Assembly: GCA_031459715.1 (NCBI GenBank)
Contig: JAVKIA010000008.1
Span: 5,186-69,185, forward strand
Direction: 5' to 3'
Length of the DNA stretch: 64,000 nucleotides
From: Candidatus Humicultor tengchongensis
Lineage (GTDB): Bacteria > Sysuimicrobiota > Sysuimicrobiia > Sysuimicrobiales > Humicultoraceae
Under the pieces are notes generated by a model, which had not been told where the DNA came from, did no database searches, and was given only the letters and a program-made list of their open reading frames with translations. The first letter of the stretch is position 1; each line of letters begins with the position of its first letter. This document shows positions 31,955-51,001 of this stretch, piece by piece. A program made the position numbers and the translations under genes.

Positions 31955-33805
31955 TTACTCCTCTACGAACACCACGCGGAGGACCTCCTCCAGCGAGGTG
32001 GTACCGTTCAGGACCTTGGCCAGCCCGTCGGTCTGCAGGGTGCGCATCCCCGCGGCGATGGCCGCTTCCTTGATCCGCCCGCTGGGCGCCCGGTCGACGA
32101 TCAGCCCCTTGATGGTATCGTCTACGGGCATGATCTCAAACAGCCCCGTCCGCCCCCTGTAGCCGATGTTGCTGCAGTACTCGCAGCCAGTGGCCCGGTA
32201 GAAAGTGGGCACCGGAGCTAGGTCGGCCAGCCCCACCCGCTTCAGCATCTCCGGGGTGGGGACATAAGACTGCTTGCAGTGCTGGCAGAGCACCCGCACC
32301 AGGCGCTGGGCGATCACCCCGATCACCGAGGAGGAGACCAGGAAGGGCTCGATCTCCATGTCCACCAGGCGGGTCACCGCCCCGGCAGCGTCGTTGGTGT
32401 GCAGGGTGGAAAGCACCAGGTGCCCGGTGAGGGAGGCGTGGATGGCGATCCTGGCCGTCTCCTCGTCGCGGATCTCCCCCACCATGATGATGTCCGGGTC
32501 CTGCCGCAGGAAGGCGCGCAGCCCGGTGGCAAAGGTCAGGCCGGCCTTGGGGTTGATCTGCACCTGGGCGATCCCCGGGAGCTGGTACTCCACCGGGTCC
32601 TCGATGGTGGTGATGTTGACCTCCACCTTGTTCAGCCGGTTGAGGATGGCGTACAGGGTGGTGGTCTTGCCGCTTCCGGTGGGGCCGGTGAGCAGGATGA
32701 TCCCGTGGGGCCGGGTGATGATGCGCTCGAAGCGCTGGTGGTCCTCCGGCAGCAGGCCCAGCTTCTCGATGCCCACAAAGGCCCCCTGTTTGTCCAGGAT
32801 GCGCATGACCACCTTCTCCCCCCAGACGGTGGGGATGGTGGAAACGCGCAGGTCGATGTCCCGGTTGTCCACCCGCATCTCGATGCGACCATCCTGGGGG
32901 ACGCGGCGCTCGGCGATGTTCATCCCGGCCATGATCTTGATGCGGGAGACCAGGGCCGCCTGCACGTGTTTGGGGGGCGTCATCACCGAGTACAGGGCCC
33001 CGTCGATGCGGTAGCGGATGCGCACCCGCTGCTCCTGCGGTTCCACATGGATGTCGCTGGCCCCCTGACGGATGGCCTGGACGATAACCTGGTTGGCCAG
33101 GCGGACGATGGGCGCGTCCTCGGCCACGGCGCGCAACCGCTCCGTGGCCACCTCCTCCTCGTAGGTCTCCGCGGGGCGGATCTCCGCCAGCGTCTGGTCC
33201 ACCCCCACGGGGTACTGGCTGAGGGCGCGCTGGAAGGCGTCGGGGGTTATCACCACCGGACGGATCTCCAGGCCGGTGAGCTTGCGCAGGTCGTCCAGGG
33301 CCACCACGTCCAGCGGGTCCTCCATACCCACCACCAGGCTGCTGTCGTCGGCGCTGATGGGGATGACGTGGTGACGGCGGGCGATATGCTCGGGGACGCG
33401 GAGCAGTACGTCCTCTTCCAGCAGGACGTCCGCCAGGTTGACGAAGTCGATGCCCAGTTGCTTGGCGATGGCCCGGGCGATGTCCTCCTGAGAGGCCAGG
33501 CCCATGCTCATGATCACCCGGCCCAGGCGCTCGCCTGTTTCCTTCTGCTGCTGCAGGGCGCGCTCCAGCTGGGCCTCGGAGAGGAGGCCGGCTTCCACCA
33601 GGATCCGCCCCATGGGCACGCGTCTGCGCATCGGGGCAACTCGCCGGGGATGACCCCGCAAAGCCTCAGTATAGCGACCGGGGCCGCCACTGTCCCGGGA
33701 CGGCGGAGCCGCGGGAGCGGCGTCTCCCCCCGCGACGTCCACCTCCACCCTGCGGGAGGTGGCCTGCCCGTGCGGGTCACGCACGGTGATGTTCAGCTCA
33801 GCCAT
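31955..33805 (-). CDS. pilB: Type IV pilus extension ATPase PilB/GspE (copy 1) with an MshEN-type N-terminal domain
   Basis: GPTGSGKTTT, IMVGEIRDEETA, LTGHLVLSTLHTN and the tetra-Cys motif CQHCK...GCEYC are present. ATG at 33805 follows GGCGGAGGG. Confidence 0.92.
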   Translation of the reverse strand: MAELNITVRDPHGQATSRRVEVDVAGGDAAPAAPPSRDSGGPGRYTEALRGHPRRVAPMRRRVPMGRILVEAGLLSEAQLERALQQQKETGERLGRVIMSMGLASQEDIARAIAKQLGIDFVNLADVLLEEDVLLRVPEHIARRHHVIPISADDSSLVVGMEDPLDVVALDDLRKLTGLEIRPVVITPDAFQRALSQYPVGVDQTLAEIRPAETYEEEVATERLRAVAEDAPIVRLANQVIVQAIRQGASDIHVEPQEQRVRIRYRIDGALYSVMTPPKHVQAALVSRIKIMAGMNIAERRVPQDGRIEMRVDNRDIDLRVSTIPTVWGEKVVMRILDKQGAFVGIEKLGLLPEDHQRFERIITRPHGIILLTGPTGSGKTTTLYAILNRLNKVEVNITTIEDPVEYQLPGIAQVQINPKAGLTFATGLRAFLRQDPDIIMVGEIRDEETARIAIHASLTGHLVLSTLHTNDAAGAVTRLVDMEIEPFLVSSSVIGVIAQRLVRVLCQHCKQSYVPTPEMLKRVGLADLAPVPTFYRATGCEYCSNIGYRGRTGLFEIMPVDDTIKGLIVDRAPSGRIKEAAIAAGMRTLQTDGLAKVLNGTTSLEEVLRVVFVEE

Positions 33806-36550: not shown

Positions 36551-38839
36551 GTGAGCGACGCCATCCGCCTGGAGGAGTACAAAGCCCGCCTGGGCCTGCC
36601 CCCGGAGGACCGGGTGCTGGAAGCCGCCCTGCGCTACCACGAGGCGCGGGCGAAGGCGCAACAGGGTCCGGTGGAGGAGGCCATCACCCTCTACCGCCGT
36701 CTCCTCGACCTGCTGCCCGACGAGCCCTGGGTCTACGTGGATCTGGTGGACCTGTACCTGCTGCGCGGGGCGACCGAGGAGGCGGTGGGCCTGCTGCTGG
36801 CCCTGGGGGACGTCTACCTCCGCCTGGGGCGCACCGACGGGGTGCTGCGAGCCTACCAGCAGGCGGCGGCCCTGGCCCCCCACGACCCGCAGATCCAGGC
36901 CCGCCTGGCCGCCTCTCCCGCCGCGTCGCCTGAGGCTCCCCCCCTGCCGCGCAGTCCCGCGCCTGCCCCTCCGCCTCCCGTCACCGCCCCGGGCTCCCCG
37001 GACGGGCAGGTGGGACCGCCTTCGTCGGGGCCCATGCCGACCCGGCCCACGCAGATGAAGCCCGCCGAGAGCACACCCTCCGCCCCCGGCCCGACACAGG
37101 CCGGGACGGAGGCGCGGCCCCAGGCCCCGGTGCGGCGCGGCACCCGGGTGGGGGGGCGGCGCACCGAGACCCTGGGGACGGTGCTGCAGGAGATGGGGCT
37201 GCTCACCCCCGAGCAGCTCTCCCAGGCCCTGGAGATCCAGAGCCGCACCGGGGAACGGCTGGGGCAGATCCTCCTGGACATGAAGGTGATCACCGAGGTG
37301 CAGCTGGCGCAGGCCATGGGCCGCCAGTGGGGCTACCGCTACGTCAACCTGACCGAGGTGAAGGTGGACCCCGACGCGGTGAAGCTTATCCCCCACTCCC
37401 TGGCCCTGCGGCTGCGGGTGATGCCCGTGACCTGGGAGCGCGGCCGGCTGGTGCTGGCCATGATCGACCCCTTAAACGTCATCGCCGTGGACGACGTCCG
37501 CCTGATGACCGGGCAGGAGGTGGAGCCGGTCATCACCACCGAGGACGACCTGCTGGCGGCCATCAACCGCCACTACCAGATGGAGACGGCCAGCGAGGCG
37601 GTGGCGCAGGAGGCCCTGGAGACGGCCGAGTCCAGCGAGGACGAGGTCTCCATCGAGCTATTGAAGACCCTGGTCGAGGACGCTCCTGTGGTCCGCCTGC
37701 TGAACACCATCATCGACGAGGGCATCCGCCAGGGGGCCAGCGACATCCACATCGAGCCGCAGCGGACCGGCCTGCTGGTGCGCTACCGCATCGACGGGGT
37801 GCTGCACGACGTGATGAAGCCGCCGCGGGACGTGCGCGCCGCCCTCATCTCCCGGGCCAAGATCATGGCCGACCTGGACATCGCCGAGCGGCGCCGCCCG
37901 CAGGACGGGCGCATCCACTACAAGTCCCCCAGCCGCACCGTGGACCTGCGGGTCTCCACCCTGCCCACCATCTTCGGGGAGAAAGTGGTGATGCGCATCC
38001 TGGACCAGTCCACCCCGCTCATTGGCCTTAACCGGCTGGGCTTCCACAGCGACACGCTGCGCCAGTGGGAGCAGGCCATCAGCACCCCCTACGGGATGAT
38101 CCTGGTCACCGGACCCACCGGCAGCGGCAAGACTACCACCCTCTACGCCACCCTGGGGACCATCAACAGCCTGGAGAAGAACATCGTCACCGTGGAGGAC
38201 CCGGTGGAGTACCAGTTGCCGCGGATCAACCAGGTGCAGGTCAATGTCAAAGCCGGGCTGACTTTCGCCAGCGCCCTGCGCAGCATCCTCCGCCAGGACC
38301 CGGACATAGTCATGGTGGGGGAGATGCGCGACCGGGAGACCGCGGAGATCGGCGTGCAGGCGGCCCTCACCGGGCACCTGGTTCTCTCCACCCTGCACAC
38401 CAACGACGCCGCCTCGGCCATCACCCGGCTGGTGGACATGGGGATCGAGCCCTTCCTGGTGGCTTCCTCCACCGTGGCCATCCTGGCGCAGCGCCTGGCC
38501 CGCCAGATCTGCCCCCACTGCAAGATCGCCTACACCCCGCCCCCCGACGCGCTGAAGCGGCTGGGACTGGACCCGCAGCGGGAGGTCTCCCTCTTCCGCG
38601 GCCAGGGGTGCGAGGAGTGCCGCTTCACAGGCTATCGGGGACGCATCGGCGTCTTCGAGCTGCTGATGATGAGCGACGCCATCCGCGAGCTGGTGGTGCG
38701 GCGCGCCCCCTCCTCGGAGATCAAGGCTCTGGCTGTGCGGGAGGGGATGCAGACCCTGCGCGATGACGGCCTGGAGAAGGTCCTCTCCGGCGTCTCCACC
38801 ATCGATGAGATCCTGCGGGTGGTCTACGTCGCCGACTGA
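36551..38839 (+). CDS. pilB: PilB/GspE-type ATPase (copy 2) with a long TPR-like + Pro-rich N-terminal extension
   Basis: GTG start lies 5 nt after GGAGA. GPTGSGKTTT, VMVGEMRDRETA, LTGHLVLSTLHTN and CPHCK...GCEECR are present. Residues 1-115 are helical TPR-like and 120-205 are Pro-rich. Confidence 0.9.
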   Translation: MSDAIRLEEYKARLGLPPEDRVLEAALRYHEARAKAQQGPVEEAITLYRRLLDLLPDEPWVYVDLVDLYLLRGATEEAVGLLLALGDVYLRLGRTDGVLRAYQQAAALAPHDPQIQARLAASPAASPEAPPLPRSPAPAPPPPVTAPGSPDGQVGPPSSGPMPTRPTQMKPAESTPSAPGPTQAGTEARPQAPVRRGTRVGGRRTETLGTVLQEMGLLTPEQLSQALEIQSRTGERLGQILLDMKVITEVQLAQAMGRQWGYRYVNLTEVKVDPDAVKLIPHSLALRLRVMPVTWERGRLVLAMIDPLNVIAVDDVRLMTGQEVEPVITTEDDLLAAINRHYQMETASEAVAQEALETAESSEDEVSIELLKTLVEDAPVVRLLNTIIDEGIRQGASDIHIEPQRTGLLVRYRIDGVLHDVMKPPRDVRAALISRAKIMADLDIAERRRPQDGRIHYKSPSRTVDLRVSTLPTIFGEKVVMRILDQSTPLIGLNRLGFHSDTLRQWEQAISTPYGMILVTGPTGSGKTTTLYATLGTINSLEKNIVTVEDPVEYQLPRINQVQVNVKAGLTFASALRSILRQDPDIVMVGEMRDRETAEIGVQAALTGHLVLSTLHTNDAASAITRLVDMGIEPFLVASSTVAILAQRLARQICPHCKIAYTPPPDALKRLGLDPQREVSLFRGQGCEECRFTGYRGRIGVFELLMMSDAIRELVVRRAPSSEIKALAVREGMQTLRDDGLEKVLSGVSTIDEILRVVYVAD

Positions 38840-39866: not shown

Positions 39867-41237
39867 TTACTGGTCTTTCCAGGCGCGCAGCCGGGTGAAG
39901 CTGCCGTAGGTGGGCGAAGCGATCTCCGCCGTGGGGTCGTAGGTGAAGACGAAGTCGCGGTCCACATCCACCGTCTGAGCCAGGACGGCGCCGTACATCT
40001 TGCCGATGTAGCCCACGGCTCGGTCCTCGTCCCAGCGCCCGTTGGGCACGATGAACGTGCCCACCACGATACTGGCCCGGTCGATCTGCACCGCGGCGGG
40101 ATCCTGGGCGGTGGAGCGGACGTAGATGCGCAGGCGGCCGGCGGGAGCCGGCTGGGGCGTCTCGGCGGTATCCGTGGGCAGCATGCCGAAGCGGCCGTAC
40201 TGCCCGACAACCAGCCCCTGGCTGCTGAGCTCGGCCACACGCAGCTCCACCTTCCCCTCCCCCAGCAGGATCAGCCGGCCGCAGCGGCCCAGGCGCAGGG
40301 TGCGCACGTTGACCACGGTGGTGGTACCGGCCGCGCCGGTGTCGATGCGCAGGTCCGTGAAGGGCGTAGCACCGGTGCAGCCGCCCGACTCTCCGGCCGC
40401 CTCCAGGACGATCTCGTCCCAGTCGTACCCGGTGGTGGCGTCCATGGTCCACCCCGCGGTGGTCACGGTGCGGTCGTTGGTTCCGGGGGAGAACTCGGGC
40501 AGCGCCACCGTCGGGCAGATGGGGCCGGGGGCGTAAGGCGTGGTCGTCCCCTGGACCTGGGTGGCGCACCCCTGCGAGCAGGTGATGGGACCCGTGGCCC
40601 GGGCGCTGCCCGTGTAGTAGCCGTTGTTGGTGTACGGCGGCGGGGGATCGGCGCGCACCCGAGCCGGGCTGCTGGCCGGGCCGAGCAGGCTGATGGAGCC
40701 GTCGGCGGCCACGTCCCCGTAGATGGTGATACCCTGGTTCACCGTGACCGAGGTGTAGGCGCAGATGACGTAGGGGCTTGTGCCCTGCGGAAACCCCTCC
40801 ACCGTCACCACCACTGTGCGGGTGGGCCCGGGCACAGACAGCGTGGCCACGGAGACGATGCGGCGGAAGGCGGCGGTGGCGCCGCTGCACGGCGGGGGCT
40901 GGCCGTCCAGGCAGCTAACGGTGACCGCCGCGCTGCCCAGCACGCTGCCTCCGGCCTCCAGGGTAACGGTCTCTCCCCGGTAGCCCACCGCCCCTGGCTG
41001 CTGCAGCCGCCCCAGCGCGTAGTGGATACCCGCCTCGGCGATGTTGAAGACGCGCACCGCCTGCAGCTGCCGGATACCCGCGGAGAGGTCGGCGGCGATG
41101 AAGCGCATCACCCCCAGGGTGATCACGGTGACAAGCCCCATCATCAGGAGGATGTACATCATCACCGACCCGGCGGCGGTGCCGGGGACGCCGACCGCGG
41201 TAGGGCTAGATGTCCTCGTTGGGGTTCTTCCAGGCAT
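39867..41237 (-). CDS. PilX-N-domain pilus protein (set C, 456 aa)
   Basis: ...GSVMMYILLMMGLVTVITLGVMRFIAADLSAGIRQLQAVRVFNIAEAGIHYAL is a PilX-like N-terminus. The start is uncertain (ATG 41237 overlaps the upstream gene by 32 nt; alternatives near 41165). Confidence 0.65.
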   Translation of the reverse strand: MPGRTPTRTSSPTAVGVPGTAAGSVMMYILLMMGLVTVITLGVMRFIAADLSAGIRQLQAVRVFNIAEAGIHYALGRLQQPGAVGYRGETVTLEAGGSVLGSAAVTVSCLDGQPPPCSGATAAFRRIVSVATLSVPGPTRTVVVTVEGFPQGTSPYVICAYTSVTVNQGITIYGDVAADGSISLLGPASSPARVRADPPPPYTNNGYYTGSARATGPITCSQGCATQVQGTTTPYAPGPICPTVALPEFSPGTNDRTVTTAGWTMDATTGYDWDEIVLEAAGESGGCTGATPFTDLRIDTGAAGTTTVVNVRTLRLGRCGRLILLGEGKVELRVAELSSQGLVVGQYGRFGMLPTDTAETPQPAPAGRLRIYVRSTAQDPAAVQIDRASIVVGTFIVPNGRWDEDRAVGYIGKMYGAVLAQTVDVDRDFVFTYDPTAEIASPTYGSFTRLRAWKDQ

Positions 41238-41961
41238 TGGCGTTGGGCTCGGGGTTGCGCAGCATCACGTCGCGCGTCCAGGTCTGGGCCTGCACGCCGG
41301 AGGAGCCCTGCGACGCCTGGACCGTGAGCGTGATTCGTATCAGGCGGATGCGCCGGATCTCTGCTGGGGAGGCCAGGTCCACTACCCGCAGGCCGGCGCT
41401 GGAGTAGTAGTCGAAGGTCAGGGCCGTCACCGTGACCCGAGGGTCGGAGAGGGGGATGGTAACCGGTGCGGCCCCCGGGGCGCAGGACTGCTGGTATTCC
41501 AGGACGACCTGGGTGCCCGTCTCCGGATCGGGACCCAGGAAGTAGCCCAGGGTGATCACCTCGTTGCCGGCGACCGTATCGCTGTTCAGGATCTCCCCGC
41601 TGACGTATACCGCCGTCGCTGTGGGCCGCAGGGCGGCGTCTTCAGCCACGACCATGTCCCGGCAGCGCGCCTCGCTCTGCTCTGCGGGGACCAGGTTCAA
41701 CCCGGCGTTGCGCAGCCGCTCCGACATCCACTCCAGGGTCTGCCGCGCCGTCTCTGTGTCGGCAGAGCGCACCGCCACGATGAGCTTGCTGCGGACCGCC
41801 GCCCCCACCAGCGTGGTCATGGATCCCGCCAGCGCCGCCATCAGTCCCATCACCACCAGCACCTCGATCAGGGTCATCCCGGCGGGACCGGGCCGGGATA
41901 CCCGTCCGGCCCTCGCTGCAGGGAGACGGGGCACGCTAGGGCGTGCTGAAGTTGGCCACAT
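41206..41961 (-). CDS. PilW-like prepilin-type minor pilin (set C)
   Basis: ...RPGPAG|MTLIEVLVVMGLMAALAGSM is a prepilin motif with Met at +1. The start is ATG 41961, or GTG 41934. Confidence 0.72.
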   Translation of the reverse strand: MWPTSARPSVPRLPAARAGRVSRPGPAGMTLIEVLVVMGLMAALAGSMTTLVGAAVRSKLIVAVRSADTETARQTLEWMSERLRNAGLNLVPAEQSEARCRDMVVAEDAALRPTATAVYVSGEILNSDTVAGNEVITLGYFLGPDPETGTQVVLEYQQSCAPGAAPVTIPLSDPRVTVTALTFDYYSSAGLRVVDLASPAEIRRIRLIRITLTVQASQGSSGVQAQTWTRDVMLRNPEPNANAWKNPNEDI

Positions 41962-42379
41962 AGGTACTGAGGATGGTATACGGCGGGGAGTCCGCCCGCT
42001 CGTAAAGCATGACCGTCAGCTTGCGCAGCGGTGGATCCGTAATGTCCCGGGCCTGGATCACGGCGTGGTGAAACCCCGCAGGGATCCGCGGCTCGGTGAG
42101 GTCGCCGTAGGTGGTATACCCGCCGTCGTGGGTCAGGGTGCGGGTCCCGGCGGCCACATCATCGGCCAGGAAGGAGTAGCCCTGCAGGCGCAGGTAGTCC
42201 AGCTCGGCCTGCACCCAGGCCGCGGCCTCAGCCCTCACCTTCCCCCGGCGCGCCTCGGTCATGCCGTAGAGCAGCCCGCCCAGGACCGTGGTGGCCATCA
42301 GGGCCAGCACGGTGGTAGCCACGACCAGCTCCACCAGGGTGAAGCCCGCCTCGTCTTCCCCGACGCGGGGGATCAGCAC
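41936..42379 (-). CDS. PilV-like prepilin-type minor pilin (set C)
   Basis: MLIPRVGEDEAG|FTLVELVVATTVLALMATTVL. Confidence 0.8.
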   Translation of the reverse strand: MLIPRVGEDEAGFTLVELVVATTVLALMATTVLGGLLYGMTEARRGKVRAEAAAWVQAELDYLRLQGYSFLADDVAAGTRTLTHDGGYTTYGDLTEPRIPAGFHHAVIQARDITDPPLRKLTVMLYERADSPPYTILSTYVANFSTP

Positions 42380-42388
42380 CGCTGCACC

Positions 42389-42877
42389 TCAGGGCTCGCT
42401 GTAGGACACCCGACCCGTGCCCTGGGTGATGCGCACGGTATATGTGCGCCCGGTGGTGGTGTTGGTCACGGTAATGGTGCCCGCGGCCAGGGGCACGCCG
42501 CGGCGGTTGAAAGAGCAAGCAGCCGCCGGGCAGGTGGTGCTGAGGACGATGTCCTCGGGAAGGAGGGCCTGGCGCAGCGTCCCTCCGTCGGCGGCGCCGA
42601 CGGTGTAGGCGTGGGAGGTGATGCTGACCGTCACCGTGGTGCGGCGCGTCAGGGCGGCCTGGCGGGCGGCGGCGATGTCGTAGGTTATGGTGCGCACCCA
42701 GCCGTCCACCCGCTCTCGGGCCAGGGCCCCGCGCACGCCGGAGATGCTCATCCCCACCACGACGCCCAGTACGCTGATCACGATCACGCTCTCCAGGGTG
42801 GAGAGGCCTGATGCGGTCCAGACAGGGCACACCTTCCAGCACCGGCGGGCGGCGCGGCGCGACCCGGATGGCGACAT
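42389..42877 (-). CDS. FimT/GspH-like minor pseudopilin (set C)
   Basis: ...VWTASG|LSTLESVIVISVLGVVVGMSI has Leu at +1 and Glu at +5. A GspH-like C-terminal domain follows. Confidence 0.72.
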   Translation of the reverse strand: MSPSGSRRAARRCWKVCPVWTASGLSTLESVIVISVLGVVVGMSISGVRGALARERVDGWVRTITYDIAAARQAALTRRTTVTVSITSHAYTVGAADGGTLRQALLPEDIVLSTTCPAAACSFNRRGVPLAAGTITVTNTTTGRTYTVRITQGTGRVSYSEP

Positions 42878-43058: not shown

Positions 43059-43412
43059 TCAGACCAGCGCCGCGGCCAGCTGGCTGTTGCGCTTCATCTC
43101 CAGACGGATGCGCCCCAGGTTACAGCGGGCATTGCCCACCACCACCAGCAGGGCATCAGGGCCGGCCGGCCCTACGGCCACGGGCCCCTCCTCGAACTCC
43201 ATGAGAAGGCCGCGCATCATCCCGCGCACCATCTCGGTGCCCATGGCCTCCGCCGCCGCCACGTTGCTGGCCACGATGGCGGCGATCCCCTCCAGGTCCA
43301 CATCCTCGGTGGTGATGCCTTCAATGACGAAGCCGTCGCGGCCCACGACCAGCACCGCCAGCACGCCCTCCACCTTGGCCAGCTCCGCCAGGACGTCCTT
43401 GATCTGTGACAT
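43059..43412 (-). CDS. Roadblock/LC7 (MglB-like) domain protein
   Basis: MSQIKDVLAELAKVEGVLAVLVVGRDGFVIEG...ALLVVVGNARCNLGRIRLEMKR matches the Roadblock pattern. ATG at 43412 lies 8 nt after GGGAGGA. Confidence 0.75.
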   Translation of the reverse strand: MSQIKDVLAELAKVEGVLAVLVVGRDGFVIEGITTEDVDLEGIAAIVASNVAAAEAMGTEMVRGMMRGLLMEFEEGPVAVGPAGPDALLVVVGNARCNLGRIRLEMKRNSQLAAALV

Positions 43413-43429
43413 CGTCCGGATCCTCCCGT

Positions 43430-44272
43430 TCACACCGCCGGGTCCAGCAGCGCCCTCAGCTTGGTCAGCGAGTTGGCCAGCACCCGGGAGACGTGTTTTT
43501 GTGAGATGCCGATCCGTCTGGCTGCTTCCATCTGGGTCAGGTCGGTGAAGAAGAGGTAGTAGAGCACCCGCCGCTGCAGCGGGTTCAGCTTTTCCATGGC
43601 CTCGAAAAGCACGATGCGGTCTTCCAGGGGGAGCTGGGTGGCGGTGGGAGACTTGTGCCGGGTGCGGTCGCGGTCGACGCGCAGGTCACCGGTCTCCTCA
43701 TCCGCCTCCAGGGAGATGGTGCGCAGCACCTCCCGCGTCTTCAGGGCCTCCAGGAGTCCTTCCTCCTCCACATTGAGCTCCGAGGCCAGCTGCTCCAGCG
43801 GAGGGAAGCGCCCCTCCTCGCTGATGTACCGGGCCGCCGCCTCCTCGATCTGGTGGTTAAGCTTCTGCAGCCAGCGCGGCTTGCGGATGGTGTCCCGGTG
43901 GTCGCGCAGGTAGTGTCGGATCTCCCCGCGGATGAGGTGGCTGGCGTAGGTGACGAACTTGACCCCGCGTGTGGGGTCGAACATCTCCACGGCATTGAGC
44001 AGACCGATGAAGCCTACCTGCATCAGGTCGTCGCCGGGGACTCCGGAGAAGATGAAGTCGGCCACGATGCGCCGCACCAGCGGCGTGCAGGTCAGGACGA
44101 TCTCCTCCCGCACCGCGGGGTCGCGGGTGGCCCGGTAGCGGGCGACCAGCTCGTCCTCGCCCCGCGCCGGTTGTTGCGGTGGCAGGGACGGCGCCGCCCC
44201 TCCGTCGTGCGGTGTGGACGTGCGAGAGGACGCTGCTGTGGGATATGTGCCCAGCTGGCCACGGGCTGCCAT
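43430..44272 (-). CDS. Group 3 alternative sigma-70 factor (SigB/SigF/SigG subfamily)
   Basis: Region 2 is DLMQVGFIGLLNAVEMFDPTRGVKFVTYASHLIRGEIRHYLRD. Region 4 is LNPLQRRVLYYLFFTDLTQMEAARRIGISQKHVSRVLANSLTKLR. The ATG follows GGAGGGGAG. Confidence 0.88.
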   Translation of the reverse strand: MAARGQLGTYPTAASSRTSTPHDGGAAPSLPPQQPARGEDELVARYRATRDPAVREEIVLTCTPLVRRIVADFIFSGVPGDDLMQVGFIGLLNAVEMFDPTRGVKFVTYASHLIRGEIRHYLRDHRDTIRKPRWLQKLNHQIEEAAARYISEEGRFPPLEQLASELNVEEEGLLEALKTREVLRTISLEADEETGDLRVDRDRTRHKSPTATQLPLEDRIVLFEAMEKLNPLQRRVLYYLFFTDLTQMEAARRIGISQKHVSRVLANSLTKLRALLDPAV

Positions 44273-44401
44273 CGGTGCTCCCCTCCGGCGGCGTGACCCC
44301 GAAAGCCGGTGAGATGCCCGCGGCAGGTTGAGCCTGTCGGGGCAGCAGGCTCAGAGCGGCGATGCATGCAGCGATGTGAGGTGCGATGTCCGCCTGAAAG
44401 C

Positions 44402-44437
44402 GAAGTCCCCCTCGGTGGTGCCACCGAGGGGGACTTC
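44402..44437 (-). terminator. Expression-platform hairpin of riboswitch 1 (17-bp perfect stem)
   Basis: The minus strand reads GAAGTCCCCCTCGGTGG-CA-CCACCGAGGGGGACTTC followed by GCTTTC. The 3' arm is also complementary to GGAAGTCCCC at the aptamer's 5' end. Confidence 0.6.
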
Positions 44438-44444
44438 AAACGCC

Positions 44445-44540
44445 TTTTTCCCTTCGGCAGCCCGGCCGACCGCTTCCCTGGTCCCGTGGCTTTGCGCCCC
44501 CACCTCGCGATGGGTTTGCCTTTTCGGGGACTTCCTATGA
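44445..44540 (-). promoter_or_regulatory. c-di-GMP-I (GEMM-I) riboswitch aptamer, copy 1
   Basis: The minus strand reads GGAAGUCCCCGAAAAGGCAAACCCAUCGCGAGGUGGGGGCGCAAAGCCACGGGACCAGGGAAGCGGUCGGCCGGGCUGCCGAAGGG. This has the hallmark GGCAAACC, a helix capped by GNRA, GCGCAAAGCC-CGGG and ...CGGGCUGCCGA. Compare V. cholerae Vc2. Confidence 0.85.
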
Positions 44541-44556
44541 AGTTGTGCTTCACCTT

Positions 44557-44562
44557 ATTCTA
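44557..44562 (-). promoter_or_regulatory. Candidate -10 box TAGAAT just upstream of riboswitch 1
   Basis: Read on the minus strand in a locally AT-rich patch about 15 nt before the aptamer. No convincing -35 was found. Confidence 0.3.
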
Positions 44563-44673
44563 CACACCTCCCGCAACTCCTGCTGCGTCGCGCAAGAAAT
44601 CTGTCCACAGCGGCCTTCGCCCCACCTTCCGCCGATTCCGCCCGGATCCTCCCGCCCCCTTCACGCCATTTTC

Positions 44674-45711
44674 TCAGGATGCGGACGGCCCGGCGCGGGG
44701 ACGAGGACTGTAGCGGCGGAAGACCAGCCGGCGGTCCACCAGGCCGCTGAGGACACCGTCCACCTGGTCCAGCGGGACGGCCGCCGCGCGCGCAACCTCC
44801 TCGAGGGTGCGGCTGCCGTCCAGCAGCGGGAGCCACCCGACGATCTCCTGGCCGAACCGGATGATCAGGTCGCGCAGCGCCTCGGGTTTGGCCAGGTCCA
44901 CGGTGGGGGCCAGGAGGAAGCGCTCGTCGCCCCGAAATCGACGAGACACCTCACTCCCGGCCGGGACCACCGTGGGCTCCCTGGATTCTGCCGGCACGGG
45001 TAGGGGAGACTCTACAGGTGGCGGGACCGCGGAGGGGGGCTCATCCGCCGCGACCGGGGAAACCGCCTCCGCCTCACCCGAGGGGACGGGCTCCTGCTGC
45101 CCGGGCTCCCGCTGCGACGGGGCGAGCTCTTGCTGTGCGGGCTCCCGCTGCGGTGAAGGCTCCGGGGGCGGGAAGAGGTCCACGGCCACGCGGCCGCGGT
45201 AGATCTGCAGCAGCCCCTCCTGCAAAGGGAAGGTACCGTCTGTCCCGAGGACAGCTCCCTGGTGGAAGCGCGCCGCCCGCACCAGGCCGTCCTGCACGAT
45301 CCACGCGGCCGCAGCATCGCCGATGAGCACGGCGACGCCGTTGAACCCGTGTTGCTGGGCCCACCGGACCCAGGCTTCTGTGGAGACGACCTCCGCCGGC
45401 AGGGCCGGATGTACCAGCGCCAGGTCGCGCAGTGCCGCCGCCCAGCGCGCCGGAAGAGGCACCTGTCCCCAGCGCGGCGGAGGCATCCGCTCCAGGCGGC
45501 GAGCCACTGAGGTGAGGGCGTGCTCCCCCTCCGCCCACCCTTTGCCGTCCCACAGGTGGATGCGGGGACGGCCGTCGACGAAGAGCAGGACCGCCTCGCT
45601 CTCGGGCCAGCGCAGCCAGAGGTAGCCGTTCCACTGGTGCCGCTGCGCCACCCAGGTGGCCCAGCGGGCAGGGGTGAGGACTAGCGACGCAGTGCCGCCG
45701 CGTACCGCCAT
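44674..45711 (-). CDS. Hypothetical protein: two DUF4388-like repeats, a Pro/Gln/Glu-rich repeat linker and a C-terminal wHTH-like module
   Basis: ATG at 45711 overlaps the upstream stop (TGATG). HGFNGVAVLIGDAAAAWIVQDGLVRAARF and QWNGYLWLRWPESEAVLLFVDGRPRIHLW resemble the DUF4388 pattern. The linker is PQREPAQQELAPSQREPGQQEP. The domain call is tentative. Confidence 0.5.
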   Translation of the reverse strand: MAVRGGTASLVLTPARWATWVAQRHQWNGYLWLRWPESEAVLLFVDGRPRIHLWDGKGWAEGEHALTSVARRLERMPPPRWGQVPLPARWAAALRDLALVHPALPAEVVSTEAWVRWAQQHGFNGVAVLIGDAAAAWIVQDGLVRAARFHQGAVLGTDGTFPLQEGLLQIYRGRVAVDLFPPPEPSPQREPAQQELAPSQREPGQQEPVPSGEAEAVSPVAADEPPSAVPPPVESPLPVPAESREPTVVPAGSEVSRRFRGDERFLLAPTVDLAKPEALRDLIIRFGQEIVGWLPLLDGSRTLEEVARAAAVPLDQVDGVLSGLVDRRLVFRRYSPRPRAGPSAS

Positions 45712-46472
45712 CAGAGTGCCTCGATCATCCGCCGGTGCCAGGTCCCGCTGGCGGAGAGCGCCGCAAGCCCGGTCACGCGCAACAGGTTGACCGGGTGAAC
45801 GTGCGTGTACAGCTCGTAGGAGGCCAGGTAGGCCAGGCCCGGACCGGCCAGGGCCAGGCAGGCCACGCCTGCAGCCACCCCCAGCCAGACGTATCCGGAG
45901 ACGCCGCCGCGGAAGGCGATGGCCGGTCCCAGGGCCAGCGGCACCAGCAGAGCCGGCATGCCAGCGTAGAAGAGGTCGAGACCCTTCTCCAGGGGGTGGA
46001 GCGGGCTGGAGAGCACCGGCCACATGAACCAGCCGACCAGCGTAACCCCCAGCAGCGCACCGCAACCCGCCAGCGCCAGCCGCTGCCACGACGGGAGCAT
46101 GGGGCTCACCAGGAGGAACTCATCCCCCAGGGCAGCGAGCAGCAGGAGGAAGGCCGTCACCTGGAAGGCGTCGGCCGCGGACGGGTAGAGGCGCGCCGGG
46201 CCGGACCACTCCCGCAGGGCGTAGACCAGCAGCCCTACCACCCACACCCCCGGTGCCCAGGCCGCCAGGTGCCAGACACGTCGCTCGCGGTCTCGGGGAC
46301 CGTAGGTGCGCGCCGCCCGCAGGAGGGCCGTCGTCGCAGCAGCCGCGGCCAGGACCTGCAAGGTGAGGCTGAGCAGGTGCTGCACCAGGCGCGCGCCCGC
46401 GTCTACCGGCACGGGCAGGAAGACCGCCAGGCCGGCGGCGACCAGGAGGAGCGGCAGCATCAGCGCGACCAC
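45711..46472 (-). CDS. Hypothetical multi-pass membrane protein (about 8 TM)
   Basis: Hydrophobic helices throughout (MVALMLPLLLVAAGLAVFL...). No catalytic motif recognised. Confidence 0.55.
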   Translation of the reverse strand: MVALMLPLLLVAAGLAVFLPVPVDAGARLVQHLLSLTLQVLAAAAATTALLRAARTYGPRDRERRVWHLAAWAPGVWVVGLLVYALREWSGPARLYPSAADAFQVTAFLLLLAALGDEFLLVSPMLPSWQRLALAGCGALLGVTLVGWFMWPVLSSPLHPLEKGLDLFYAGMPALLVPLALGPAIAFRGGVSGYVWLGVAAGVACLALAGPGLAYLASYELYTHVHPVNLLRVTGLAALSASGTWHRRMIEAL

Positions 46473-46475
46473 TTC

Positions 46476-47291
46476 TCAGTCTCCCTGCGCTGCGGACTGC
46501 AGGATCTGCTTCACGGCGTCCTCGCAGGCGAAGTCTCGGGCCAGCGTCAGCAGCAGCCGCTCCGTGAAGGCCGACCCGGCCACCCGCCGCAGCCCCTCTG
46601 CCACGCGGCGCAGGGCGGCGGCGCCCTGCTCCGGGCTGAGGCGGCCCTGTATCGCGCCCCCGGAGGCGGTGGCGTGTGGTGCCATCGCCGCATTGGCCGC
46701 CTCCTCCAGTTGCAGGGCCAGCGGGCTTCCACGGTGCCGTCGCACCCGCGCCAGCGCCTCAGGCAGCAACCGCTCCCACGGCACAGCTCCCGGGCTGCGA
46801 CCTGAACCCTCACCGCCAGCCGCCACCCGGGGGGTCGGCAGACCGCGCAGCCGGGCCACCAGTCCGGCCCCGCCGCCTGCGGCGCGCCCATCCGCAGGCG
46901 CGCCCCGCCCGTCCTTCTCCTCCGCCCCGCGCAGCGCGGCATCGGCGGCAGCGCCGAGTGGCGGAGCCGACCCCGGATGGACGGAGACCAGCGCGTCCGG
47001 GTCCGCCCACACCAGGCGGAGCGCCGCCAGGGGGTCCTCCTGCTGCAGCAGCACGTCGCCCGCACCCGCGGGCAGCACCCAGGCACCGTGCAGGCGACCG
47101 CAGTCAAACCACAGCGCCGCCTCTCCGGGGCGGCCGGCGGCGTACATCAGGCCGCTGAAGCCACGACGCCGCAGCAGCGCCACCAGCGGGTCGAGACGCA
47201 GATAGGCGGGCCGCAGGTCGTCGTACAGCGGCCGCTCCGCGCGGGCCACCCGCAGCAGCGTCTCCGCTTGCAGCCGGGAGAGGGCAGGCAT
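46476..47291 (-). CDS. Hypothetical protein with a DUF4388-like N-terminal module
   Basis: LDPLVALLRRRGFSGLMYAAGRPGEAALWFDCGRLHGAWVL. The assignment is tentative. Confidence 0.45.
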   Translation of the reverse strand: MPALSRLQAETLLRVARAERPLYDDLRPAYLRLDPLVALLRRRGFSGLMYAAGRPGEAALWFDCGRLHGAWVLPAGAGDVLLQQEDPLAALRLVWADPDALVSVHPGSAPPLGAAADAALRGAEEKDGRGAPADGRAAGGGAGLVARLRGLPTPRVAAGGEGSGRSPGAVPWERLLPEALARVRRHRGSPLALQLEEAANAAMAPHATASGGAIQGRLSPEQGAAALRRVAEGLRRVAGSAFTERLLLTLARDFACEDAVKQILQSAAQGD

Positions 47292-48236
47292 CTACCTGAT
47301 CCCCCGCTCCCTGTAGTAGCGGTGCGCCCCCGGATGCGCGGGGATGGGCATCCCCCGGCGGGCGGCCACAAGGCTGATATCCTGGCCACGGGCGTGGGCC
47401 CGGCGCAGTCGGTCAGCATGCTCCCACAACGCCCGGGTCAGGCTGTAGACGAGCTGCTCGTCCGCCTCCTGGCGCGTCAGCAGCATGGCCACTACCGCCA
47501 CGGTATCCACAGGACGGTCCTGCCCGCGGTAGGCGCGTGCCGGAATCTCCGCGGCGCTGTAGAGGGGATACTGCACGCGCAGGGCGTCCGCTGCAGCCCG
47601 CGGGATGGGTAATAGCTGCAGGTCCCCTCCGGCCGTCGCCTCCTGCACGGCGGCGGTGGAAATGCCCGCGGTGAAGAAGGCGGCGTCGATCAGCCCGTCC
47701 CTGAGCTGGTCGGCCGCCTCGGCGAAGGTGAGAAACTCCTGGTGCATGCGGGCGGCATCCAGGCCGAAGTGACGCAGGATCTGCCGGGCGTTCACTGCGG
47801 TCCCGCTCCCTGGTGCTCCCACCGCCACGCGCCGCCCCTTCAGATCGGTGATACCGTTGATCCCCCGACCCTTCAGCGTCACCACCTGCACTACCTCCGG
47901 GTAGAGCATGGCCACGCCGCGCAGGTTCCCTGCCAGCGGCCGGCCCAGCTCCGCGAACGGCTCCACCCCTCGGGCGGCATACCAGACGACGTCGTGCTGG
48001 GCGAAGGCCACGTCCGCATCACCGCGGGCGACCAGCCGAACGTTGGCCACGGAGCCGGCAGTTACCTGAGCCATCGCCTGTACTCCCGGAACCGTCGCCG
48101 ACCAGATCTCGGCCAGCGCGGTCCCCAGCGGGAAGTAGACGCCTCCCACCTCGCCGGTGGCCACCACGACGTACGTGCGCTGGCCCGCCTCCGCCGGACC
48201 GCTCAGGCCGATGGCGCCGGCCAGGATCAGGACCAC
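47292..48236 (-). CDS. TAXI-family (TRAP-associated) periplasmic solute-binding protein
   Basis: VVATGEVGGVYFPLGTALAEIW...VTAGSVANVRLVARGDADVAFAQ...GRRVAVGAPGSGT...AHPGAHRYYRERG. The start is GTG. Confidence 0.8.
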   Translation of the reverse strand: MVLILAGAIGLSGPAEAGQRTYVVVATGEVGGVYFPLGTALAEIWSATVPGVQAMAQVTAGSVANVRLVARGDADVAFAQHDVVWYAARGVEPFAELGRPLAGNLRGVAMLYPEVVQVVTLKGRGINGITDLKGRRVAVGAPGSGTAVNARQILRHFGLDAARMHQEFLTFAEAADQLRDGLIDAAFFTAGISTAAVQEATAGGDLQLLPIPRAAADALRVQYPLYSAAEIPARAYRGQDRPVDTVAVVAMLLTRQEADEQLVYSLTRALWEHADRLRRAHARGQDISLVAARRGMPIPAHPGAHRYYRERGIR

Positions 48237-48260
48237 CGCGCAGCGCGTCGGCCACTCCCC

Positions 48261-49367
48261 CTACTGCCTCACTGCCACAAAGCGCCCCCCGCTGAGGCGC
48301 GCTACCACCACAGCGCCCAGGGGGTCGCCGAAGCGGTCAAACGTCAGGTTGCCGGTGACGGCGGGGAAGCGCCGCAGCGTCGCCACCGCGTTCCGCATCC
48401 GCTCCCGGTCCGCCCCCGCGCGGCGCAGGGCAAAGGCCAGCACGCGCACCGCATCGTAGGCCTGGGCTGCGATCTGCTCGGGTGTACGGCCGTACCGTTC
48501 GCGGTAGGCGGCGACGAAGCTGCGGACAAGGGGGAGGGGGACGTCCGGCAGAAAACCCGCCGGCACGTACAGGTCGTTGGCGACGGTCCCGGCCCAGGTG
48601 GAGGTGTCCTCGGTGTATAGGGCGCCACCTGCTCCGACGGGCAGGCCGGGAGCCGCGGCGCGGGCCTGTCGCAGGAAGAGCGCCCCCTCCGGGGGATACG
48701 CCGCCAGGAAGATGGCCTGCGCCCCCTCGGCGAGAGCCCCCCGGAGGTGCCGGGTGAAGTCCCGCTCCCCCTGCCGGAAGAGGCGACACCCGGTGACGAC
48801 GGCACCCCTGGCCCGGACAGCCTGCTCAAAGGCCAGGGCAACCATGGTCCCGTAGGCGTTGCTGTCGTGCACTACAGCGATGCGGCGCGCTCCTAACCGG
48901 TCCACCAGGTGGGCGGCGACGGCCTGCGCCTGGCTGTGCGCCGGCAGCGCCGTGCGGAAGACGTAGTGTCCGCCGTAGGGCAGCGGGACGGCCGCGCCCG
49001 GCGTGATCAGGACCAGGCGGTGGCGCTCCGCCGCGGGGGCGGCGGCCACGGCGGAGGCGTCGCCAAGCGGCCCGAGGACGGCCACCGCTCCCCGCGCCGC
49101 CAGTGCGGCCACGAGCTGGGGGGCACTCTCGATGGCCCGTTCCTCAAGGCGCAGCAGGACCAGCGGTCGGCCGCGCACGCCTCCGTCGGCGTTGATCTGG
49201 CCTGCGGCCAGCTCGGCTCCCTCAAGGAAAGCGGCCGCACCGCGCGTCCCCTCCGCGGGCGGTACGATCACCCCCAGGGTGAGCGCCGCGCCGGCCGTGG
49301 AGGCGGCCGGCGCGCACGCCGGCAACAGGAGGACCGACAGGAGCAGCCCCCACGGTGGCCGGCTCAT
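48261..49367 (-). CDS. Type 1 periplasmic binding protein (LivJ/LivK-like, Peripla_BP_6) lipoprotein
   Basis: MSRPPWGLLLSVLLLPAC has a lipobox. LTLGVIVPP...GAELAAGQINADGGVRGRPLVLL...YVFRTALP follows. The upstream 70+ codons of the track ORF overlap the riboswitch and are rejected. An alternative ATG lies at 49379. Confidence 0.8.
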   Translation of the reverse strand: MSRPPWGLLLSVLLLPACAPAASTAGAALTLGVIVPPAEGTRGAAAFLEGAELAAGQINADGGVRGRPLVLLRLEERAIESAPQLVAALAARGAVAVLGPLGDASAVAAAPAAERHRLVLITPGAAVPLPYGGHYVFRTALPAHSQAQAVAAHLVDRLGARRIAVVHDSNAYGTMVALAFEQAVRARGAVVTGCRLFRQGERDFTRHLRGALAEGAQAIFLAAYPPEGALFLRQARAAAPGLPVGAGGALYTEDTSTWAGTVANDLYVPAGFLPDVPLPLVRSFVAAYRERYGRTPEQIAAQAYDAVRVLAFALRRAGADRERMRNAVATLRRFPAVTGNLTFDRFGDPLGAVVVARLSGGRFVAVRQ

Positions 49368-49426
49368 CGCTTGCCTCATCAGCCAATGGCACCTTCCTGC
49401 CGGAGGACGTCTCCGGAGCAACGAAC

Positions 49427-49479
49427 GGCGCAGCGCCCTCAGCCTCGCCTGAATGCCGAGAGGCCGAGGGCGCTGCGCC
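49427..49479 (-). terminator. Expression-platform hairpin of riboswitch 2
   Basis: The minus strand reads GGCGCAGCGCCCTC-GGCCTC...GAGGCT-GAGGGCGCTGCGCC followed by GTTCGTT. A long GC stem with a weak U-tract. Confidence 0.5.
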
Positions 49480-49499
49480 AGAATGAACCGTAGCTGTCC

Positions 49500-49610
49500 T
49501 CGCCTGTCGGCAGCCCGGCTGACCCTACCCGCAGCGCGCCCGCGGACGCTGCGGCATCTCCCCTGGGTCCCGTGGCTTTGCGTCCCCACCTCGCGGTGGG
49601 TTTGCCCTTA
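49500..49610 (-). promoter_or_regulatory. c-di-GMP-I (GEMM-I) riboswitch aptamer, copy 2
   Basis: The minus strand reads GCGAUAAGGGCAAACCCACCGCGAGGUGGGGACGCAAAGCCACGGGACCC...GGGUAGGGUCAGCCGGGCUGCCGACAGG. It aligns almost position for position with Vc2 (GGGCAAACCAUUCGAAAGAGUGGGACGCAAAGCCUCCGGCC...GCGGGGUUACCGAUGG). Confidence 0.9.
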
Positions 49611-49655
49611 TCGCAGGCACCTACCCGTCCTTCCCATACCCGGAGCGCGGCCTAC

Positions 49656-50600
49656 CTAGACCCTGCCCGCCCCTGCCGGGTAGACGACACGCAGCCGGCG
49701 GTAGAGGTCGCCCACGTTGCGCACGTAGAGCACCGTCTCCTCGTAGGGCGGGATGCCGCCGTACCGCTGCACCGCGCCCTTTCCGGCGTTGTACGCCGCC
49801 AGGGCCAGGTGGAGGTTTTCCCACCCGAAGTGATCCAGGTTCCCTCGCAGCACGCGTACCGTCCCGTAGATGTTCTGCACGGGGTCGTCGGGGTGGATGC
49901 CGAGGGCGGCAGCCGTCTCCGGCATCAATTGCCCCAGCCCTCTGGCGCCCCGGTGGGAGCGGGCGGTGGGAGAAAATCCGGATTCCACAGCGATGACGGC
50001 GGCAATGAGCCGGGGGTCGAGGTTGTACTGCCGGGAGAACCCCAGGATGGCCTCCGCGATGACCTGGGCGTCCTCTGCGGCCAGGCGGGCGTTGTAGAAG
50101 CGGGCCATGGCGGCGTAGACGCGCGGGTCCAGGGCGGGCGGCCACGCCCCCGCCGGGATGCCGCCCAGGGCCATTCCGCGGATGGCACGCAGCCCCTGGC
50201 GGGCCACCTCCGCCTCCGCCCCCCGGGGGACCAGGAGGAGCGCGCGCTGCAGCGCCCGCTCAGCCTGCGGCAGGTCGCCGCTGGAGGCAAGGGCGTGCCC
50301 CCACCACAGCCAGACGTGTCCGTCTCGCGGAGCAAGCACCGCAGCGGCCCGCAGCGCCTCGGCGCCCTCAAGGGGGCGGCCGAGACGGACCAGCGTGATC
50401 CCCAGCCAGAACCGCGGCTGTGCCTGGCCTCGCCGCTCCCGCACCGCCCGGTGGAAGGCCTCCGCCGCGGCCGCCAGGTGCCCCTGCCGGTAGAGGGCGA
50501 TTCCTGCGTCCAGAGTGGAAGCCGCGGCCAGGGGCGCCGGCCTGGCCGCCGCCACCGCCAGCGCCAGGGCCAGGCCCGCGGCAACCTGCCCGTCCCTCAC
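49656..50600 (-). CDS. Lytic transglycosylase (SLT domain) with an N-terminal TPR region and signal peptide
   Basis: AVIAVESGFSPTARSHRGARGLGQLMPETA...ALAAYNAGKGAVQRYGGIPPYEETVLYV is the SLT catalytic-Glu motif. The GTG start overlaps the upstream stop (GTGA). Confidence 0.85.
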   Translation of the reverse strand: MRDGQVAAGLALALAVAAARPAPLAAASTLDAGIALYRQGHLAAAAEAFHRAVRERRGQAQPRFWLGITLVRLGRPLEGAEALRAAAVLAPRDGHVWLWWGHALASSGDLPQAERALQRALLLVPRGAEAEVARQGLRAIRGMALGGIPAGAWPPALDPRVYAAMARFYNARLAAEDAQVIAEAILGFSRQYNLDPRLIAAVIAVESGFSPTARSHRGARGLGQLMPETAAALGIHPDDPVQNIYGTVRVLRGNLDHFGWENLHLALAAYNAGKGAVQRYGGIPPYEETVLYVRNVGDLYRRLRVVYPAGAGRV

Positions 50601-51001
50601 GTCAGCAGGTCGACCAGCTCGCTGCGGCGCTTCTTGATCGCCAGCCGGGCCCGGGCCACATTGCCCCCCGCACGCAGCACGATCACCAGGAAGTGCTCCG
50701 CCGTGAGCATGACCACCAGCAGGGAGAGGCGGTCGCTGGAGAGGGAGACGGAGTCCACCTCCCCTCCGTCCAGCTTGCGCGCACAGTATGCGCCCAACTT
50801 GAGCAGAACGGCCAGGTCCTGGCCCATCCGCCCCAGGTCGGCCTCCAGGTCCTTGACCACCGCCTGCACCACGGTCCCGTCCATGGCGCCGACCGCCGCC
50901 GCCTGCGCGTCGTCGGGGGTCAGTTCCTGGAGGATCGCCCGCAGGGACATGGATGACTTCGTCAGCGCGTCCAACGACCGGGAGGACTTCGACGACTCCA
51001 C
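50597..51001 (-). CDS. Roadblock/LC7-like protein (second paralog)
   Basis: LRAILQELTPDDAQAAAVGAMDGTVVQAVV...VDSVSLSSDRLSLLVVMLTAEHFLVIVLRAGGNVARARLAIKK. GTG at 51001 follows GGAGGG. Confidence 0.55.
   Translation of the reverse strand: MESSKSSRSLDALTKSSMSLRAILQELTPDDAQAAAVGAMDGTVVQAVVKDLEADLGRMGQDLAVLLKLGAYCARKLDGGEVDSVSLSSDRLSLLVVMLTAEHFLVIVLRAGGNVARARLAIKKRRSELVDLLT

Follow-up and report, generated by a model that had tools for sequence, protein, structure and literature searches.

Two predicted class I c-di-GMP riboswitches in the leaders of consecutive operons for orphan binding proteins and a SigF-like sigma factor

The 64-kb stretch of DNA analyzed here (hereafter, the window) carries two GEMM-I (class I c-di-GMP) riboswitches on its minus strand, one (U) ahead of five genes that begin with two orphan binding proteins, and one (D) ahead of a sigma factor gene. 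Judged from their own sequences and those of their relatives, U and D are very probably functional c-di-GMP-sensing aptamers. The explanation that we consider likely as a whole is that canonical GEMM-I aptamers occupy the leaders of two consecutive minus-strand units and that both, as we infer from the structure of the leaders, attenuate transcription as OFF switches. The RNA elements, in the order in which they would be transcribed, are as follows.

49502..49618, minus: U c-di-GMP-I aptamer (Rfam RF03167, covariance model R1, nucleotides read directly)
49618..49612 with 49509..49502, minus: P1 helix of U, part of the aptamer
49565..49525, minus: 41-nt distal extension of U in the P2 helix, the GCGA-capped hairpin also being present
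49498..49504, minus: U linker GGCGAGG, comprising the last bases of the P1 3' strand and 4 nt more, proposed antiterminator strand
49427..49479, minus: U terminator-like GC hairpin (from folds), followed by GUUCGUUGCUCC
44556..44561, minus: candidate -10 hexamer TAGAAT, ~25 nt upstream of P1 of D (alignment A3)
44446..44534, minus: D c-di-GMP-I aptamer (Rfam RF03167, R1)
44402..44437, minus: D terminator-like perfect 17-bp hairpin (inverted-repeat scan), followed by GCUUUCAGGCGG
44273..44401, minus: remainder of the sigma leader, ~130 nt, nearly invariant (alignment A3 and alignment fold)
44354..44323, minus: exact 32-nt block CTGAGCCTGCNGCCCCGACAGGCTCAACCTGC, unique in the window and found elsewhere only in syntenic loci

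Two aptamers, their genes and their relatives

A cmscan of the 64 kb with Rfam 15 returned exactly two matches above the gathering score, both full length, both on the minus strand and both assigned to RF03167 (c-di-GMP-I-GGC, clan CL00126; gathering score 59). U matches at 49615..49505 (62.7 bits, E = 2e-12) and D at 44529..44452 (66.5 bits, E = 1.6e-13). An earlier note, made from the sequence alone, had put two elements on one strand about 5 kb apart, in agreement with these matches. Its plus-strand coordinates are corrected here, both riboswitch RNAs being encoded on the minus strand; it located the U element rightly but ended it at 49612, too short by the remainder of P1, which reaches 49618. 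The long GC hairpin that it had drawn at 49427-49479, before the first gene, was recovered, its arms (49479..49460 and 49446..49427, 20 nt each) forming a helix with one G-U pair around a loop of 13 nt, and the longer P2 that it had ascribed to this copy is seen in a distal part (49565..49525) about 35 nt longer than that of D.

The note had also reported that 39 of 41 core positions are identical between 49566-49606 and 44480-44520, and a recount returned the same two mismatches. When the 64-kb window was searched with the 41-mer at 49566-49606, this recurrence with 2 mismatches was the sole match; no other with up to 3 mismatches was found in the 64 kb (0.00 expected, from 100 shuffles). In the minus-strand RNA, one difference is a C to U change that turns a C-G pair into a U-G pair in the helix capped by the GNRA loop GCGA, as had been proposed, and the other is an A to G change in a 3-nt bulge (GAC versus GGC). 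A pattern of the core in which four positions were set to N and two to R matches at least 120 metagenome contigs, and the identity of the two cores largely reflects family-wide conservation. A recent duplication was considered as its source and rejected, as the core is found in more than 120 unrelated metagenome contigs and as the orthologues of U and of D each group separately. Since U orthologues are more alike mutually than they are to D copies, and vice versa, the pair is old and has been maintained. The core GGCAAACCCNNCGNGAGGNGGGGRCGCRAAG is common to more than 120 environmental contigs (loci L015-L134).

The genes of the two units, with the neighbouring secretion-type ATPases, are listed below.

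48261..49367, minus: gene 1, lipoprotein-type Peripla_BP_6 binding protein, LivK-like (Pfam PF13458, E = 2.9e-46)
47292..48236, minus: gene 2, TAXI-family TRAP solute-binding protein (TIGR02122, E = 1.5e-97; NMT1_3, E = 1.4e-83)
46476..47291, minus: gene 3 (G3), conserved, 271 aa (35 homologues)
45711..46472, minus: gene 4 (G4), polytopic membrane protein, 253 aa (hydrophobic segments)
44674..45711, minus: gene 5 (G5), 345 aa, DUF742-like C-terminal winged helix (start codon mapped)
43430..44272, minus: SigB/SigF/SigG-family sigma factor, 280 aa (TIGR02980, E = 3.4e-54)
43433..43059, minus: Roadblock/LC7 protein (Robl_LC7)
42877..39867, minus: pseudopilin/pilin-like genes (GspH and N_methyl)
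36551-38839, plus, and 31955-33805, minus: T2SSE-family ATPases with MshEN domains, one with an N-terminal TPR (domain matches)

U thus precedes genes 1 to 5 and D the sigma factor gene, the arrangement of a bracketed five-gene unit followed by a sigma unit that had been described before. The five genes after U are closely spaced, with 24 nt between genes 1 and 2 and 3 nt between genes 3 and 4; gene 3 starts directly after the stop of gene 2 (TAG-ATG), and genes 4 and 5 overlap at TGATG. The translation of gene 1 begins with an N-terminal signal and an LPAC lipobox. For gene 2, the TIGR02122 hit comes from NCBIfam and the NMT1_3 hit from Pfam, and no DctQ/DctM permease gene is adjacent to it. 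Neither in the window nor in the homologous loci was a permease or ATPase partner found near genes 1 and 2, so that the description of this unit as an operon of orphan binding proteins, here of the Peripla_BP_6 and TAXI families, holds.

The remaining three proteins are less readily classified. G3 matches no Pfam or NCBIfam family; the named ones among its 35 homologues are labelled Armatimonadota or 'bacterium', it is 100% identical to a protein of a MAG labelled Armatimonadota, and none of the PDB matches to its AlphaFold2 model (pLDDT 75) reaches an E-value below 0.3. A family search with G4 gave no match. For G5, DUF742 was found in 4 of 20 homologues (best E = 1.1e-5), its model (pLDDT 51) is confident at residues ~260-335 only, and a search of its sequence against the PDB returned nothing meaningful. 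Actinobacterial 'conservon' signalling modules combine DUF742 with Roadblock/LC7 proteins; at this locus neither G5 nor the Roadblock/LC7 protein was seen with a GTPase or kinase as partner. MshEN domains have been reported to bind c-di-GMP, so this messenger may act on the pilus-like system twice, through RNA and through protein. In the 64 kb, open frames of 150 aa or more contain no GGDEF motif and no diguanylate cyclase candidate, and the EAL- and HD-GYP-type patterns that were also searched are too loose to inform.

The window DNA is almost entirely covered by hot-spring metagenome runs, and the two-riboswitch layout is kept in at least 10 related metagenomic loci, several of them labelled Armatimonadota. 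The G3 proteins of these syntenic loci (at least 10) are only 49-82% identical, yet both riboswitches lie at matching positions. Every locus that spans both positions has both riboswitches, by Rfam and by our model R1; these are the window, L001-L005, L007, L010, L011 (cut at a contig end), L012 and L135. The conserved gene order runs RuvX, DUF1292, YceG/MltG, HAD phosphatase, a 117-aa protein and a TPR-SLT transglycosylase 5' of U; Peripla_BP_6, TAXI, G3, the membrane protein G4 and G5 between U and D; and sigma factor, Roadblock/LC7 and usually pseudopilins 3' of D, with a convergent TPR-MshEN-T2SSE ATPase.

In L006, the closest relative, a deletion (site L006:4335-4438, set against window 49600-49730 and 47262-47330) has taken away the U aptamer with its hairpin, the LivK-like gene and almost the whole TAXI gene. 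Still present are the upstream flank with the 5' strand of P1, GGTGCCTG, apparently the last ~25 nt of the TAXI gene, G3 to G5 and an intact D riboswitch. As the U aptamer and both binding-protein genes are gone in one deletion, L006 ties the U riboswitch to those genes. On the minus strand of the window, the entry to P1 of U, GGGTAGGTGCCTGC (~49612-49630), is very similar to the junction of the TAXI stop and the G3 start, AGGTAGATGCCTGC (~47282-47297). The two form a short direct repeat that flanks exactly the module absent from L006; the likeness may be coincidence.

Two variations were seen in L135, a 615-kb contig. A gene with GAF and HD_5/HD domains, possibly an HD-GYP c-di-GMP phosphodiesterase, is inserted upstream of the locus (L135:2845-4494), and a trypsin-PDZ protease replaces the pseudopilin genes after Roadblock/LC7.

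Leaders and the direction of switching

Each aptamer is followed, within 5 to 25 nt on its 3' side, by a long GC hairpin. The U hairpin has an 11-bp core (CGCCCUCRGCC/GGCUGRGGGCG) that is present in 11 of 11 U leaders, and at the base of its stem a G-C pair of the window becomes A-U in L002, L003 and L010. The linker GGCGAGG, which joins aptamer and hairpin, can pair with CCUCG of the 5' arm. One linker base is C in the window and U in the relatives, and it is matched by G versus A at two places, the hairpin arm and the 5' flank of P1; such a G/C/G set in the window against A/U/A elsewhere, a single event, is the pattern expected if a base alternates between two partners. The D hairpin ranks second of the 62 short-loop inverted repeats in the window and is the only 100%-complementary pair among the best 25 of the 62. 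At 4 of its 17 pairs, both-sided compensatory changes are seen in L001/L004.

Upstream of D, the hexamer TAGAAT is present in 10 of 11 aligned leaders and reads TAGAAC in L005. An AGGAGT box, upstream of TAGAAT at a spacing of 13 nt, is found in 11 of 11 leaders and does not fit a sigma-70 -35 element. After the hexamer comes a small 5' hairpin of the form UGAAS-ACAA-SUUCA (44535-44555, minus strand), in which a C-G pair is swapped for G-C between the window and L003/L007. A sigma-70 promoter scan of 43300-50700 found nothing, including no full promoter at TAGAAT. Upstream of U, between the stop of the TPR-SLT gene and the aptamer, there is a G-rich motif, YGGGCAWGGGMA...GGG (~49625-49655, minus strand), that is kept in all loci, the L006 remnant included (alignment A8). 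No sigma-70-like promoter is evident near this motif (~49625-49655), and transcription of the U leader may come from the upstream operon by readthrough or start at an unrecognised promoter.

A switching mechanism is suggested by folds of transcripts truncated before the 3' arm of the hairpin, in which, for most loci, the aptamer 3' strand and the linker pair with the 5' arm and loop. In D, the aptamer 3' strand GCUGCCGAAGGG pairs with CCCCCUCGGUGGC of the 5' arm (8 + 3 bp). The partners in U are UGCCGACAGGYGAGG on one side and CCCUCRGCC and UCGGCA on the other; in the L001/L004 lineage it is the 5' strand of P1 that pairs instead. At 5 to 11 bp, the proposed antiterminators are short, and their details vary between lineages. 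Without ligand, the aptamer 3' strand, from the end of P2 through the C92 junction to the 3' strand of P1, would pair with the 5' arm, which would delay the hairpin and allow polymerase to read through. With c-di-GMP bound, P1 and the junction would be locked, the hairpin could form and transcription would be attenuated, such that high c-di-GMP would lower expression of both units. Because the equilibrium folds form the hairpins whatever the aptamer does, any such switching must be kinetic.

An OFF switch is the natural reading because both hairpin arms lie outside the aptamer. We lean, by a little over even chances, towards termination of this kind in both U and D, and our confidence in attenuation is moderate because the U tracts are weak: the tails in the window, GCUUUCAGG and GUUCGUUGCUCC, hold 3 to 5 U. 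A scan for consensus terminators called neither hairpin, and its whole yield over 43300-50700 was two weak intragenic sites, no excess over shuffled sequence. These results count in favour of a different logic, in which U and D would be functional c-di-GMP sensors that act as ON switches or through translation or Rho; under translational or Rho control the GC hairpins would serve stability or processing rather than termination. Two further observations point the same way. The ON type is common among related GEMM-I leaders from metagenomes, and the sigma leader has a separate conserved segment that is predicted to sequester the ribosome-binding site and AUG. Against this stand the hairpin arms, which lie outside the aptamer, so that ligand binding cannot sequester a terminator arm, and the placement of the hairpins directly 3' of the aptamers, that of D being ~130 nt from the ribosome-binding site. 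Moreover, runs of 4 to 5 U follow the U hairpin stem in L002, L010 and L012, and the D-copy stems end, after the GC core, in weak A-U or G-U pairs followed by UUCACUUU. We therefore hold these other modes of control to be improbable, at something like one chance in a handful, and continue with OFF attenuation as the preferred reading.

The ON-type leaders are informative in another respect. Their terminator is the same 3' strand itself (CUGCCGA...UCGGCAG followed by a run of U), which implies ON switches and makes alternative pairing of this strand a recurrent design. Terminators made from the aptamer 3' strand occur in many core-sharing contigs, for example L025, L028, L031, L055, L112 and L126.

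OFF attenuation by c-di-GMP does not explain the invariant 130 nt of the sigma leader that follow the D hairpin. This remainder is almost invariant across loci whose proteins are ~50% identical, and covariation is not visible in it because the sequence hardly varies. In the consensus fold, the sigma gene's ribosome-binding site and AUG are paired with it, and the segment may act as a further regulatory RNA or as a binding site for a protein. A more ambitious reading, which we offer as doubtful, has two parts. The sigma leader would join a c-di-GMP attenuator to the ~130-nt element, which could respond to a second input. The riboswitch-controlled genes may form a hitherto undescribed, c-di-GMP-gated signalling route from the cell exterior to the sigma factor, in which the binding proteins, G4, the DUF742-like protein and Roadblock/LC7 would signal to a sigma factor that drives the type IV pilus-like genes.

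Evidence for expression of the locus is slight. In one assembled hot-spring metatranscriptome run (X7, from the same study as the genome), an exact 246-nt contig covers 49454-49699, that is, the aptamer and half of the hairpin of U, at a depth of 2.2 with strand and ends not resolved, too weak a record to show termination. The same run has an exact short contig inside the TAXI gene (47861-48056), contig depths being 2 to 5, and a 2957-nt contig of another organism with a D-like aptamer.

Class, ligand and covariation

The label GEMM-I, given in the earlier note, has to be reconciled with the RF03167 assignment. The search of Rfam that the note had proposed puts both copies in the c-di-GMP-I clan above the gathering score, with RF03167 on top and RF01051 masked: for each window copy one lower-scoring clan match, its family name not given, also passed its own gathering score, the RF01051 score was hidden by clan competition, and a rescan of a shorter stretch displayed RF03167 alone. 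RF03167 is the top family for most homologues as well. Taken at face value, then, U and D, which exceed the gathering score of 59 with 62.7 and 66.5 bits, would be members of the c-di-GMP-I-GGC variant class, sensing another ligand or binding c-di-GMP differently.

The nucleotides speak against this. Where the RF03167 consensus reads GCGAAgCc, the window copies and their homologues read GCAAAGCC, and the match line is blank at that point (model position 37). This position we take to be A47 of Vibrio Vc2, with the numbering and contacts of Vc2 as generally known. Its equivalent is A, not G, in both window copies and all syntenic homologues, and A in 124 of 125 metagenomic core sequences among the matches listed, with G in one. 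Drawn through the Rfam consensus, the correspondence to Vc2 numbering places the equivalents of G20, A47 and C92 at G 49606, A 49579 and C 49510 in U, and at G 44520, A 44493 and C 44457 in D. These contact positions read G, A and C in 22 of 22 window and syntenic sequences displayed (10 U, 12 D), and all three are invariant across 19 aligned U and D copies. Additionally, some U orthologues score best on RF01051 (L005 with 51, L012 with 48 and L011 with 60 bits; gathering score 35). The name 'GGC' presumably denotes positions 20/47/92, a mapping that we use against the variant class, which Weinberg et al. 2017 defined.

With the defining G absent and the contacts reading G/A/C, the GEMM-I label is right, and we consider membership of the variant class very unlikely. 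The RF03167 label is an artefact of the model, which is high in information and built on a similar backbone of high GC; on the sequences at hand, its gathering score does not separate A47 from G47. Among the metagenome contigs listed, the G47 of the GGC variant was seen in L092 only. A c-AMP-GMP (GEMM-Ib) sensor was also considered and rejected, position 20 being G in an invariant column. The assignment of the ligand to c-di-GMP is secure at the sequence level.

The architecture and position agree with the class. Both copies show a P1-closed junction, a GNRA-capped hairpin with P2, and covariation; the GCGA or GUGA loop, the bulged C and the bulged G are present and invariant in the aligned copies, their tertiary docking being a prediction. 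Both lie 130-180 nt 5' of start codons on the coding strand, each followed by a conserved hairpin. The clan match, the contacts, this architecture and the place in a 5' leader together uphold the earlier classification.

Because the aptamer core is almost invariant within the syntenic set, covariation was assessed in a wider one, through covariance model R1, which was built from the 19 U and D copies and scores U at 87.3 and D at 92.1 bits. The alignment comprises 109 hits from the window and 91 loci; among the 107 distinct sequences that were scored, standard pairs fill 93.2% of cells and both-sided changes occur at 17 of 26 pairs. The covariation score is 0.392, compared with 0.171 in shuffles, none of 500 of which reach the observed value, and 0.03-0.10 with slid partners; an alignment fitted to R1 favours the structure, and the margin is large even so. 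In the U copy of the window, 26 of 26 modelled pairs are standard. The comparison with related loci that had been suggested earlier thus finds helices that covary in 107 relatives and both riboswitch positions kept. That U and D might be decaying relics or chance GC-rich structures with no regulatory role, for which one could cite an expression record of one low-depth metatranscriptome contig, is barely credible in view of E-values of 1e-12 to 1e-13, a near-invariant aptamer with compensating helices in loci whose proteins have diverged to ~50% identity, and the loss of U in L006 along with its downstream genes.

Significance and comparison with known systems

These results add two well-supported c-di-GMP-I riboswitches and a regulon for Armatimonadota, a poorly studied and largely uncultivated phylum. 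They point to c-di-GMP control of a SigF-like sigma factor tied to pilus-type genes, and also of orphan binding proteins and uncharacterised proteins. U and D belong to a well-known riboswitch class, whose mechanism as known is unchanged; it is the direction and mode of regulation at this locus that we infer. There is in addition a lesson for annotation. The 'GGC' model out-scores its parent on canonical high-GC GEMM-I aptamers (RF03167 over RF01051), so that automated labels can mis-file them, and a check of the defining nucleotide resolves the matter.

The closest known system is the RF01051 family with the Vibrio cholerae Vc2 aptamer, for which the numbering, the ligand contacts and the C44-G83 pair are established by published structures. 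U and D share with it the three-helix junction, the GNRA-capped hairpin (GCGA here), the G/A/C contacts and the location in a 5' leader, and they have, also invariant, a bulged C and a bulged G as counterparts of the C44-G83 tertiary pair. Unlike typical RF01051 members, they have a high-GC core of the GYRA-loop version, in a host of the phylum Armatimonadota. U differs further in its 41-nt extension of the P2 tip, and the D copies of the window and most relatives have a strand from P1 to the first hairpin that is one nt shorter. RF03167 resembles them in a score above gathering and a consensus nearly identical save for one position, and differs precisely there, as the G of the variant at the A47 equivalent is A in every copy that we examined.

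In Clostridioides difficile, the class I riboswitch Cd1 lies upstream of the flgB flagellar operon, which contains sigD, and acts as an OFF switch via a terminator, so that it controls a sigma factor together with a surface-motility apparatus. D is likewise a class I c-di-GMP riboswitch placed before a sigma factor and a surface-motility apparatus. In contrast to Cd1, the sigma gene comes first after the riboswitch and is of the SigB/F/G type, the associated genes are type IV pilus-like rather than flagellar, and a second copy precedes binding-protein genes. The c-AMP-GMP riboswitches have A at position 20, unlike both window copies and all homologues, which have G. A common scaffold is nevertheless shared with the c-AMP-GMP (GEMM-Ib) riboswitches of Geobacter (mentioned in PMC7266159).

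Finally, tandem c-di-GMP-I riboswitches have been described as 347 doublets and 12 triplets (PMC9481103). As in these tandems, the locus has more than one aptamer of the same class with the same predicted ligand. Unlike them, the window copies lie 5 kb apart, each with its own hairpin and its own genes, and D has its own candidate -10 element; U and D are parallel regulators, not a cooperative tandem.
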